Below, one piece after another: positions 34,238 to 37,457 of a stretch of 64,000 bases of DNA. The notes below the pieces were generated by a model. It did not search any database, was not told the DNA's origin, and saw only the letters and a program-made list of their open reading frames with translations. Numbering within the stretch: position 1 is the first letter of the stretch; the number at the start of each line of letters is the position of its first letter. This DNA comes from Rickettsiales bacterium. Lineage in GTDB: Bacteria > Pseudomonadota > Alphaproteobacteria > Rickettsiales > BLZN01. A program made the position numbers and the translations under genes. The stretch spans positions 10,654-74,653 of the forward strand of contig BLZN01000136.1 in the NCBI GenBank assembly GCA_014132315.1. Reading direction: 5' to 3'.

Positions 34238-34797
34238 TTTAAATTAATTCTCTTTTGTGGTTCTGAAATTAGGTTTTGGGCCTTTTTCTTAAATCCATTG
34301 CCCAATGGGATGATTTCATCTTTCGCTAAGCCTTCTTGGAAAAAACTTCTGATTTGATTTTTTGTTGACTTTTTACTGCTTAGTTCAAGTTTATCAGAAA
34401 TGATTTGTCTTGCTTCATCATCTAGCAAATCTTCTATAACTTCACCGTCTGCAATGATTGCGCTAATTGTTATCGCTCTTTCATTCGCTAATCCGTATTC
34501 ATCCATATATCTTTGTTTCTCCTCCTTTCTTTTAGCATTGCCGTCTAATACGAAGAGCATACTAAGGTTTTGCCCAACACTTAGTGCTACTAAAGCGCCA
34601 GAAATGCCTGCAGCAAGTCTAAGCAACAAGGCAAGATCTTCTATAACAAGCAGCTTTTTTGCATATCTTACAATGTAGTGTTTAGATTTTCCTTCAAGTA
34701 CTATTAAATCCTTTGCGATATCAAACCTTGAAGGGGCAACTTATGCTATCGTCTAATATTATCTTAACATGAGTTAGTTTAAATGTCAAGGACTATG

Positions 34798-35490
34798 TTA
34801 AAGCTGGGTATTTTGATATTTAAAGCCGGATTTGTGATATCCTAGATTTTCGGAAACGGCGAGGGAGCATACGGATCCCGGTTCTTCATGATTATCATTT
34901 TCATGATTATCATTTTCACCTTCCGAATGAGAGCTTTCCCCCCCTAGCGTGGGGTAATCTTCGGAAAATTCCGAGAGATTTAATATGGAGGCCTGTTGGT
35001 CGGGAGTTATTGATATTCTGAGGGTACCTGAATTAGGGCCGAAGGTTGAATGCGCGCGGTTGTCGATTGGTTGGGGGTACAACTGGTTCCTGGTCGTTTT
35101 AGGAGAAATACAAACGACGGTAGGCACTGGCGAAGTGGCAAAAGAAGATTCGGCCAAATTGTTTTGTGAGATGCGCTCATAATGCTGGGGTATTTCACCG
35201 TCTATCTTCTTTAAGTGCGAGTCCAATCGGCTATACATACACTCTGCATGATCTCTGAGCATTCTTTCTTGGACATTAAATTTTTTAGCTATCCATCTGA
35301 CGGCGACGACGCCTATTCCTGTCATGGCTGTGAATAAGACTGCCCCAAAGCCTGAAAATATGACGGAGGCGAGTCGGTCAGCGTATGAGAGTTCGGAATC
35401 GGTAAGGGAAGAAGCAACAGAAGGATGAGCGGGATCTGCATTATATGGATCAGGAAGTGTAGGTGATAAAGGATATGTGTTGTTTTGCAT
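34798..35490 (-). CDS. Intact orphan single-pass membrane protein inside the insertion that splits the OLD-like gene
   Basis: 230-aa ORF that is visibly GC-richer than its flanks. Pro-rich N-terminus, TM segment VIFSGFGAVLFTAMTGIGVVAV, low-complexity tail with duplicated NDNHE. A consensus promoter lies directly upstream. Confidence 0.6.
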   Translation of the reverse strand: MQNNTYPLSPTLPDPYNADPAHPSVASSLTDSELSYADRLASVIFSGFGAVLFTAMTGIGVVAVRWIAKKFNVQERMLRDHAECMYSRLDSHLKKIDGEIPQHYERISQNNLAESSFATSPVPTVVCISPKTTRNQLYPQPIDNRAHSTFGPNSGTLRISITPDQQASILNLSEFSEDYPTLGGESSHSEGENDNHENDNHEEPGSVCSLAVSENLGYHKSGFKYQNTQL

Positions 35491-35497
35491 GTTATTT

Positions 35498-35558
35498 ATT
35501 ATGGGTTGTTAATTATGAATTGTCAATTATGGGTTGTTAATTATGAATTGTCAATTAT
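35498..35558 (-). promoter_or_regulatory. Tandem 28-bp repeat (2.2 copies), each copy a TTGACA-N17-CATAAT promoter
   Basis: The minus strand reads TTGACAattcataattaacaaccCATAAT twice in tandem. The proximal -10 ends 7 nt before the ATG at 35490, and no Shine-Dalgarno sequence is present. Confidence 0.55.
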
Positions 35559-37457
35559 TTTGGTTTTCTTGTATTTATAAGTTTAATCTATCGAGCAAAG
35601 GCTGAAAATAACTTGTTTTTCTTGGGTATTCATTTACAAAAGATCTGTATCTGGCAACTTTTATATCTAAATAATCATCGTTTAATGACGAAGCGTCCAT
35701 GACTGAATCTGTAAGTGCATCCGTTCTATTGGCTACAATAAATGTTTGCTCAAGCCACTTTGATTCGATCATGTAATGACCGTGTGTTGTATAAGCTAGT
35801 GTATGGCTACCTTTTACAATTTCTGGAAAGCTCTATTAATTTCTGCTGAGCAGCAGCGTGTAAATTTGAAGCAGACTCGTCAAGAAAAACAAGATTGGCC
35901 TCTTGTTTTCTCGCATAACTCTAAACTGAGTGAAAAACATGAATGCAAAAAATCTTTCAAAACCCAAAGATCTATCATTTACATCGAGCATTCTTATTCC
36001 ATCTTTGATCTGAAATTTGATATAAATGTCTTGCTCATTGGTCTTTATGATTGCAACATTAGCATCACGTTTTTCTTCCTGACGAGCTCCATAAGATATA
36101 TTTATTTCTTCTCCTCTTATATCTTCTCAAAAGATTTCATTCCAGCCTCCAAAAACAAACCCTGTTACAACAGAACTAGTTCTATCTATTACATGCTGAA
36201 TTTTGTGTTTATCATCACCAGTGTTCCAGATATTCAAAAAATCCAGCCAAGCGACAATCTTGTCTTCGCTTCGAGCTCTTCTTACAATTGATTCTTCAAT
36301 GGTATGACCCTCAAAATTGAGAATATCTTGAAAGGTGCTTCGATAAAATTTACTTACATTATACCGCGCTCTTTGGTGAGAAGAATTCGATTTGGGAAAT
36401 CGAATATAAATGTAAGGAAATATGCGATATCAGGAGTAAAGCGGTATATTATATCCCGTATTTTGGTTCGTTCTTCTGTACTGGGCTCACTCCATTTTTG
36501 CTATCTTCCAGCTTTGATTTTCACATTATTTCTTAGCTCGAGATAGCTTTTTACAAAATCATCATTCTTAAATCTCTATTGCTGTTCAAAAGTTACTTCT
36601 TCATCAAAGCTATCCGGATCAATTACGATATTATGCTTAGCTTTTAGTGCTTTTATGATTTTCTCTTTTTCGCCATCTTCTAATCTTGCAGTAGCAGTTA
36701 CAGAAATATCTCCATTAGAATTAGAAATAAGATGCCGCAGAGCCCTCTCTTTAAACGGAACTCCAGATTCATCCTCTCCTCCAACCAGTTTGCTTGTTGC
36801 TTGATCTGGCGAAAAGCTATCAATAGCTTCTAGTACTGTTGTCTTGCCACTTTTATTTAATCCTACAAAAGCAAACTTTTCCATTTGGACTGAACCTTGC
36901 TGTTGTGTCCTTAATGCCCTTAAAATTTTGTATTCTTAAACTTGAGTAATACATGCCGCTCACATTTTTAATAATTACTGATTTCTAATTTGTTCAAATT
37001 ATAAAATATTTGATTGATTCATAAAGACCATTCGTAATTGAGCGACTTATGGAACGGGACTTGTCATGACTGCTAGCAGGAATTCCCTAAGACATGTTCT
37101 AATAAATTCCTCTAGGGAGCGCCATAAACCCGCTATTCGCTTTCTAAATTATGAGCTTGGCTTATAGCTTGCACTTTGTGTTGAGCAAAATTAATAAATC
37201 AAATTTCAGACTCATATATTTTCCTTTTTAAATTAATAAAACAAGTGATTTACTGCTGATCAGAAGCTTTAATAGTTAACGCAAATTTTTGGCTATTATT
37301 GAAGTCCTTAGCGCTTGACTTTATACATTATTTTGGTTATTTAAGGTAACTGTGTCAAAAAAACACTATTAAGCCTTATTTCCAATTTATTTTTAATCTT
37401 TTGTTAATCTCTCACTATCTATACTTAATTTAATAGTAAAGATATTAATTTTTACTT

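Follow-up and report, generated by a model that had tools for sequence, protein, structure and literature searches.

A probable moron-like promoter-plus-gene insertion in an already decayed OLD-family gene of the coral-associated Rickettsiales bacterium SESOKO1

The closest described counterparts of the element reported here are the morons of prophages, such as the HK97 gene 15 unit, which are pieces of extra DNA that a close relative lacks at the corresponding place, come with a promoter of their own and one small gene, in many cases for a membrane protein, differ in guanine-plus-cytosine (GC) content from their surroundings and bring no transposase, the mechanism of their insertion being unknown or illegitimate (PMC3594210). 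In a 64-kb stretch of contig BLZN01000136.1 (hereafter the window) of the uncultured 'Rickettsiales bacterium SESOKO1' from the coral Acropora tenuis, whose genome has 1.08 Mb and 41.3% GC (PMC7686419), we analyzed an 840-bp insertion which resembles them, its promoter being putative, and which splits the remains of an OLD-family nuclease gene. An earlier note on this DNA had suggested that it could be a small cassette that inactivated a defence nuclease, in an arrangement which the note did not recognise as a described one. Neither the inactivation nor the lack of a described counterpart was upheld, since the same lesions of the nuclease gene are found in a relative without the insert, and a promoter-plus-gene unit of differing GC content that is absent in a relative is what has been called a moron (PMC3594210).

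The likeness to morons is partial. The insert lies within a pseudogene of a 3.5-kb recombinase-plus-nuclease islet and not between phage genes, it has no detected terminator, its host is an obligate intracellular member of the Rickettsiales, and it was met with only once, so that horizontal spread, which belongs to the moron idea, is not part of the comparison. Three of five moron features are present or plausibly present (absence in the relative, GC content and, by sequence, a promoter), while a terminator and a phage context are not; by analogy, the insert may be said to work like a moron without being a classical one.

With the OLD-family nucleases (P2 Old, Thermus OLD 6p74, Gabija GajA) and with AriA/AriB of PARIS (PMC11464382) the interrupted gene shares an N-terminal AAA_15 ABC ATPase and a C-terminal Toprim-like domain with E...DxD, united in one polypeptide of about 630 amino acids (aa). 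Unlike PARIS and Gabija, it has no AriB/DUF4435 match and no GajB-like helicase neighbour in the homologues examined, and the window copy is a pseudogene. The locus further resembles the orphan and pseudogene landscapes of host-restricted bacteria in its reduced genome (1.08 Mb), its decaying mobile-element genes, its strain-specific, homologue-free small open reading frame (ORF) and its neighbouring ankyrin-repeat genes, intact in one strain and broken in another. Unlike the usual cases, the orphan is here a discrete, precisely bounded insertion that can be dated against a sister strain, which is rarely possible.

The SESOKO1 genome was obtained from one single cell by two rounds of multiple displacement amplification (MDA) and 75-bp reads (PMC7686419). 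The Logan assembly of run DRR235466 served as an independent assembly of these reads, and its contigs were the only ones on which sequence identical to the 230-aa ORF of the insert and to the neighbouring housekeeping proteins was found. Two relatives, L007 and L008, were found by searching with the neighbouring FabG protein, and their loci were then fetched. L007 is an 89-kb contig (European Nucleotide Archive ERZ26168041; contig coverage 3.85x) whose DNA is 92-94% identical to the window (about 6-7% nucleotide divergence), and L008 is a relative from a Joint Genome Institute metagenome, about 85% identical. Protein searches were word-indexed over 5.8 billion proteins and exhaustive with HMMER over 1.84 billion representatives.

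An 840-bp insertion and its age relative to a sister strain

The locus was read on the minus strand by three-frame translation, which bore out the earlier reading that the ATPase half of the nuclease gene ends at 35575 and that the Toprim half resumes at 34740. The ATPase reading starts with MYYSSLRIQNFKGIK at 36954, shifts frame several times and ends in ...SYFQPLLDRLNL*, with its stop at 35577-35575; the Toprim-like reading restarts at 34740 with VAPSRFDIAKDLIVLEGKSK, in the same frame as the ATPase end, and is open to 34237. The features concerned are the following.

34741-35580, minus strand: insertion of 840 bp (3 x 280), absent from L007, both junctions present in Logan contigs
34741-34751, minus strand: 3'-terminal 11 nucleotides (nt) of the insert, cgatagcataa, a 9/11 match to the target just upstream of the insertion point
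35583-35593, minus strand: target-side copy of this junction repeat, cgatagattaa (encodes D-R-L), by sequence reading
35581-36954, minus strand: ABC-ATPase half of the OLD pseudogene, with four or more changes of frame and three stops in frame (N-terminal fragment matched by Pfam AAA_15; tblastn against the intact homologue P0002)
34237-34740, minus strand: Toprim half of the OLD pseudogene, 168 open codons (alignment to intact homologues; tblastn against P0002 residues 465-628)

The last codon before the break is that for N (aac, 35583-35581) and the first one after it that for V (gtt, 34740-34738), LDRLN / VAPSRFD, and the insert sits exactly at the ATPase/Toprim domain boundary and brings in-frame stops at both ends. 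An interval of 34741-35577, about 0.83 kb, had been proposed before; the insertion itself stands, while its size is corrected to exactly 840 bp. The uninterrupted allele would read ...GATTAAAC joined directly to GTTGCC.... One Logan contig crosses the left junction (...gatagattaaac|ttataaatacaag...) and another the right one (...gatagcataa|gttgcccc...), and these two contigs end only inside a 28-bp tandem repeat of the insert, which the k=31 graph is unable to resolve. The Logan paths are unbranched at both junctions, which argues against a second genomic copy.

The comparison with L007 gives the polarity and the timing. L007 positions 1-4971 correspond to window 29830-34739 and L007 4974-7174 to window 35582-37775, the window flanks aligning gap-free, so that L007 carries the surrounding islet but not the 840 bp. 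Across the site L007 reads ...YFQPLFNRLKIVPSRFG... / ...YFQPLFNRLKIVPSRFGIEKDLIILEGKSEYY..., which has the exact spacing and length of the family; no target bases were lost or gained, and the two bases flanking the join differ from L007. The frameshifts KER(G/S)IM|YNVSKFYR and KLIE|S(F/L)PEIV of the OLD gene are identical in the window and L007, with zero indel between the strains. The same T-run at ILFF|DESASN is frameshifted in both, the lengths differing by one T, and the missing A before the ATG-GG of ...KMG(E/K)FAFVG appears common to both as well. Because these frameshifts are common to the two strains, the nuclease was dead in their common ancestor and the insertion came later. The 840-bp insertion thus occurred in the window lineage after its split from L007, and it landed in neutral, already dead DNA. 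Three C-to-T stops (FEQQ*, KAGR*, NEIF*) and a 7-nt deletion are found in the window only, and this lineage has gained 4-5 disabling OLD lesions in about 1.9 kb since the split.

The imperfect duplication reported earlier at the junctions is present (9/11 positions), and the insert has, as had also been noticed, neither a transposase nor meaningful terminal inverted repeats; its only ORF has no family match above threshold, no transposase screen of the window ORFs having been made. A target-site duplication was rejected, since the event is younger than about 6-7% divergence and the repeat nevertheless shows two mismatches and a length discrepancy; the junction repeat would be too diverged for a duplication made by so young an event, and it fits a patch of microhomology better. 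The earlier note had asked whether the cassette is multicopy; the window holds no other copy of the insert and no repeat family common to the insert and the rest of the window, and BLAST of the insert and of its ORF against L007 and L008 found nothing. An insertion sequence, a miniature inverted-repeat transposable element and a transposon were rejected on these grounds (no transposase, terminal inverted repeats, target-site duplication or second copy in the window). An integron cassette was rejected because the boundaries ...aaac|ttataaat and ...gcataa|gttgccc do not fit G|TTRRRY and no attC-like imperfect palindrome is present, and the size of the insert, its internal stops and the sequence of its boundaries led us to reject a group II intron and a Rickettsia palindromic element.

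As a separate observation, the 44-54 nt of OLD sequence upstream of the junction (35581-35634) have three collinear partial matches inside the insert (35553-35576, 35346-35360 and 34741-34751), namely CAAGAAAA(A/C)CAA..., TATTTTCAG(C/G)CTTTG (14/15) and CGATAG..TAA (9/11). The spliced-alignment score of these echoes has a z of about 4 against shuffles, by a test designed post hoc, and the single pieces are marginal (p = 0.03, 0.08).

The inserted gene and its promoter region

On the minus strand the insert consists of a 22-nt AT-rich leader, a 28-bp repeat with putative promoters, an ORF of 230 codons (ORF230) and a final 57 nt; 90 nt precede the ATG and 57 nt follow the stop.

34798-35490, minus strand: ORF230, orphan protein of 230 aa (ORF list, hydropathy, coding score, AlphaFold)
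34885-34918, minus strand: perfect 15-bp tandem duplication, 2.3 copies, encoding NDNHE-NDNHE (Tandem Repeats Finder score 68, 100% matches)
35498-35558, minus strand: perfect 28-bp tandem repeat, 2.2 copies, made of four 14-bp units; top-scoring tandem repeat of the window
34761-34789, minus strand: promoter-like site TTGACA-N17-TAAGAT that faces outward, its -10 hexamer preceded by TG, past the ORF stop (consensus match only, 10/12)

ORF230 is the only intact ORF of the islet, as had been stated before, and the features ascribed to it were all found: six Pro within the first 25 residues, a single hydrophobic segment at residues of about 40-68 which is predicted to form one transmembrane helix, and an ENDNHENDNHE motif which stems from the 15-bp duplication. 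The C-terminal tail is acidic and predicted to be disordered. The AlphaFold model from the single sequence has helices at 31-71 and 75-113, the remainder having a predicted local distance difference test (pLDDT) value below 50 and the whole an overall pLDDT of 48.6. The longest stop-free run is 236 codons, in comparison to 2000 dinucleotide shuffles which averaged 87 and reached 220 at most, and the coding score is positive only in the annotated frame. ORF230 is thus a gene and not a chance ORF, because its 236 codons exceed all shuffles and the annotated frame is the best-scoring of six.

The claim that the insert is GC-richer than its flanks was confirmed by calculation (45.2% for ORF230 in comparison to 35.5% for the ATPase half and 35.9% for the Toprim half, a gap of about 4 standard errors). 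However, the insert, at 41.4% GC as a whole, is genome-typical in view of the 38-50% GC of host genes, and the AT-rich outlier is the islet. The GC1/2/3 values of ORF230 (0.51/0.43/0.42) are within the range of host genes. The codon-usage check which the earlier note had suggested was run, and the synonymous-codon log-likelihood ratio favours host over island by 20.9 bits (host chunks 33.5 +/- 17, island chunks -22 to +9).

No relative of ORF230 was obtained by any search. The word-indexed search returned only ORF230 itself, and exhaustive HMMER returned ORF230 and one marginal match (E 5.7e-4), a repetitive 1739-aa helical-repeat protein (apolipoprotein-like). The tblastn-confirmed scans of genome, metagenome and viral contigs gave no relative of ORF230 or of the insert; LMBR1 was the sole Pfam match and lay below its cut-off, PADLOC and NCBIfam gave nothing, and Rfam found no RNA family in the insert. 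Residues 21-45 of ORF230 (AHPSVASSLTDSELSYADRLASVIF) had a tblastn match of 48% over 25 aa (E 0.013) at window 55978-56052, within a 64-aa ORF fragment (AAHPSSLRTYTDEELEFVDRLNSELI; 55933-56127, minus strand) of the decayed island at tRNA-Gln, and this likeness is probably due to chance.

Each 28-bp copy bears a TTGACA-N17-CATAAT site, which matches the consensus at 11 of 12 positions. The promoter proposed for this gene can thus be described as near-consensus, and as two putative 11/12 sites in place of one consensus promoter. Sites of 11/12 or better number seven in the 64-kb window on both strands, two of them being those of the insert. The proximal -10 hexamer ends 7 nt upstream of the ATG (35490). 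A Shine-Dalgarno sequence is absent at ORF230, which is normal here because only 6 of the 27 host genes of the window have a Shine-Dalgarno-like motif (4-mer); by these sequences, translation initiation in SESOKO1 seems to be largely independent of it. The outward-facing promoter-like site aims into the Toprim remnant of 168 codons, which has no in-frame start codon near its beginning.

The four top-scoring tandem repeats of the window are all within the insert (a perfect 28-bp repeat of 2.2 copies, a 14-bp one of 4.4, a perfect 15-bp one of 2.3 and a 22-bp one of 2), and this richness in repeats suggests a duplication-prone history of the DNA. The exact 28-bp repeat was not found in metagenomes. 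A degenerate two-unit search with the 14-bp repeat in genome contigs returned 29 arrays, nearly all from Bacteroidota, in which almost identical 14-bp units (TTGACAATTCATAA or TAACAACTCATAAT) lie in intergenic DNA of Prevotella, Flavobacterium and Bacteroidales metagenome-assembled genomes (for example L012 2220-2310, L025 411-498 and L018 2685-2800, plus 26 others). Since the match is confined to the repeat, these arrays were judged to be unrelated AT-rich minisatellites.

The interrupted OLD-family gene and its islet

When the fragments of the window are joined without the intervening DNA, they give 628 aa, for which the 5.8-billion-protein collection holds 877 matches, the best being single proteins of 628-632 aa with 64% identity and 100% coverage. 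In agreement with the earlier note, the motifs at the two edges are adjacent in intact members of the family, which read SYFQPILDRLxV(V)PSRFDI across the break with zero spacer. Because the homologues are contiguous, the ancestral gene was one fused ATPase-Toprim gene. The window fragment with GLNKSGKTT (Walker A) matches AAA_15 (E 6.6e-5), and the intact homologue P0002 does so over the whole profile (4.5e-23) and matches PADLOC Old (1e-15). The PADLOC AriA profile matches the OLD-type homologue end to end (E 1.8e-25), AriA and Old being the best profiles. In the C-terminal domain E480, D530 and D532 are invariant in 20 homologues, and the catalytic motifs of the window remnant are degenerate (EGKSK for EGKSD, DGN for DGD). 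The Pfam OLD-like_TOPRIM match of P0002 is under the cut-off (E 0.073). Its AlphaFold model has moderate confidence (mean pLDDT 72.7), and the fold search with it gave Thermus OLD 6p74 as the top match (E 3.6e-10, full length), with GajA 8u7i also among the best matches. The profile search of Protein Data Bank sequences with the OLD family gave marginal matches only.

PARIS was ruled out, as no AriB/DUF4435 match was obtained (Pfam on P0002; PADLOC on the C-terminal 188 aa of P0002, E <= 1), and so was Gabija, as the neighbours of the intact P0006 and P0002 have no helicase Pfam match and the window neighbour is a serine recombinase. Judged from its sequence, the interrupted gene is a stand-alone OLD-family member of an uncharacterised subfamily, whose homologues lie in integrase-associated islands.

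The gene is part of an islet with the following features.

32714-32789, plus strand: tRNA-Thr (TGT), by ARAGORN and Rfam (tRNA, 71 bits); the islet integration site abuts its 3' end
32790-37124, no strand: AT-rich integrative islet of about 3.5 kb (insert not counted), which the window and L007 have and L008 lacks
32904-34243, minus strand: serine recombinase remnants in several frames (three-frame translation), the start ATG overlapping the OLD stop

Without the insert the islet has 34.7% GC in comparison to 40.6% for the window, and it holds only the decayed serine recombinase and the decayed OLD-family gene. Two recombinase fragments have weak Pfam Resolvase matches, and a Resolvase-annotated fragment is found at the corresponding place in L007. 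In L008 the gene order is FabG, tRNA-Thr and an ankyrin-repeat gene without the islet, which is an empty tRNA site. The alignment of the window with L008 ends exactly at 32789, and the L008 sequence after the tRNA realigns at window 37119-37163. The islet therefore spans 32790 to about 37124, as both edges are bounded by this stop and realignment. It integrated at the 3' end of tRNA-Thr in the common ancestor of the window strain and L007, and both of its genes decayed after that. A copy of the tRNA-Thr 3' end was sought as an attachment (att) repeat, and nothing beyond a short GCGCCA/GCACCA resemblance was found. The distal edge of the islet (37117-37163) carries gcgccaTAAACCCGCTATTCGCTTTC, which resembles the tRNA 3' end (32781-32789) and the downstream L008 sequence GCACCACAAACCTACTATTCACTTTC (L008 3400-3444); this likeness sets the right edge of the islet at about 37124 and hints at an att core of very small size.

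Beside the islet, the relatives have the ankyrin-repeat gene as a single unbroken ORF (890 aa in L007, 6857-9529; 946 aa in L008, 3722-6562), and in the window (37458-40184, plus strand) it is broken into three ORFs of 67, 411 and 392 aa. Within this region, window 37776-38238 (about 450 bp) has no alignment to L007. A second decayed AT-rich island lies at 54246-59100 beside tRNA-Gln (54173-54246). It contains a D12-class adenine methyltransferase broken into two or more pieces (55341-55850), a fragment of DUF6362 and numerous short ORFs that matched no family.

Competing explanations and the meaning of the insertion

The explanation we favour, and hold to be somewhat better than an even bet, is that the insert is a single-copy, moron-like promoter-plus-gene unit which was placed by illegitimate recombination, with the history of islet and insertion as told above. 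The unit would comprise an AT-rich leader with a duplicated near-consensus sigma-70 promoter, a 230-codon gene and a short AT-rich tail with no terminator. Its segment probably came from the bacterium's own gene pool (the same or a related genome), as suggested by the host-like composition of the coding part and of the AT-rich flanks, and it may have been placed by illegitimate, microhomology-assisted recombination and not by a transposase. If expressed, the transcript from the proximal promoter would start at or next to the ATG and yield an mRNA with no leader or almost none, which would encode a single-pass membrane protein whose C-terminal tail is acidic and disordered, and transcription would then continue into the Toprim remnant. 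Our best guess for the role of ORF230 is a membrane or host-facing accessory protein, the chances being about evenly balanced between this and an unselected passenger.

Several points weigh against this explanation. An intrinsic terminator was not found after ORF230 on the minus strand, and the folding of the 3' region has a z of -0.87 against shuffles. The coding score of ORF230 is 0.064, which is below every host gene tested (0.15-0.35), and without any homologue there is no sign of purifying selection on it. No donor locus was found, nor any orthologue among the proteins of the L007 metagenome assembly, which is of low coverage; an orthologue would be expected there if ORF230 were an old resident of the lineage. 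Its expression is a prediction from the consensus promoters, and all evidence for the insert comes from one MDA-amplified single cell (PMC7686419). The intactness of ORF230 is also uninformative, being explained by youth, because the expected decay is small: if the insert is as old as the split, its 693-nt ORF should have gathered about 1.5 lesions and the probability of none would be about 0.2, higher if it is younger.

Some of these points can equally be read in favour of an unselected passenger, that is, a gene-bearing fragment of the same or a co-resident genome which was captured in break repair, is inactive and is intact only since it is recent. An insertion in already dead DNA costs nothing, and the missing terminator, the low coding score, the missing evidence of constraint and the small decay expected since the split all agree with this. 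Against it, the unit is neatly complete, with a promoter and a full ATG-to-stop ORF between such short flanks, its promoter region is perfectly duplicated and among the strongest consensus matches in 64 kb, and the ORF is far longer than chance allows; we take the passenger as a serious but minority possibility. A non-autonomous mobile element with a passenger gene, mobilised in trans (for example IS200/IS605-like, with no terminal repeats or target duplication), would account for the clean insertion without target loss, as such families need no terminal inverted repeats. A 12-bp AT-rich subterminal inverted repeat does lie near the 3' end of the insert, and counting the two flanking mismatched bases the termini become CTTAT...ATAAG, though in AT-rich DNA a match of 5 bp at the termini is close to what chance would give. 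The element is single-copy in the window with a read graph unbranched across both junctions, and the genome, metagenome and viral collections searched hold no related sequence, so that such an element is very unlikely. A slim chance is left to the more far-reaching view that the unit is the first sighting of a transposase-independent, promoter-carrying cassette moving within or between Rickettsiales symbionts, or a very young gene built by repeated tandem duplication, which would deliver a new host-facing membrane or effector protein into neutral pseudogene 'landing pads'. The crowding of the four top-scoring tandem repeats in the insert and the weak echoes of the upstream 44 nt belong to this view.

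The comparison with L007 bears on the remaining explanations. That the cassette entered an OLD nuclease gene which still functioned and thereby disabled a defence system, as first proposed, is suggested by its place exactly at the inter-domain boundary with stops at both ends; the insert-free L007, however, has the same frameshifts, and the gene was dead beforehand. The earlier note had itself said that closely related strains which have these broken flanks but not the ORF would speak against its proposal, and L007 is such a relative. The L007 contig has only 3.85x coverage, yet three identical lesions are unlikely to be errors, and the knockout is extremely improbable. The same low degree of belief applies to an artefact, either a double template-switch MDA chimera or a misassembly across the 28-bp repeat, for which speak the two MDA rounds on a single cell with 75-bp reads (PMC7686419), the absence of the insert from L007 as the only relative with the islet, and the meeting of the two Logan contigs only within the tandem repeat. 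A misjoin at this repeat is not credible because both junctions lie in unique sequence and abut one codon boundary, for which two independent breaks at one site would be needed, and the unbranched Logan paths leave no second genomic copy as a template. MDA chimeras are, moreover, mostly inversions. Finally, the insert could be ancestral and lost from L007 by a precise deletion, which the imperfect direct repeats (9/11) flanking the segment could mediate. Such a deletion would produce ...GATAGATTAA-GTTG..., which lacks two bases and is out of frame, while L007 agrees exactly with the intact family in length and in residues (LxRLKIVPSRF). As a deletion between the repeats would not regenerate the L007 sequence, the L007 state is ancestral and the insertion derived, and the chance of a loss is next to negligible.

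The event is of an ordinary kind, in that a decaying islet acquired an orphan accessory gene, but it is seen at unusual resolution. Gene gain is thought to be rare in obligate intracellular symbionts. Here three genomes represent three states, namely a tRNA site that is empty, an islet whose nuclease is dead, and that islet carrying the insert, and a lineage-specific orphan gene is dated and bounded to the base in such a symbiont. The case brings no new mechanism, and it corrects the tempting but wrong story of an insertion that killed a defence gene. If expressed, ORF230 would be a candidate strain-specific surface or host-interaction factor of coral-associated Rickettsiales; if not expressed, the locus would indicate that decaying defence islets act as neutral sinks for new DNA.

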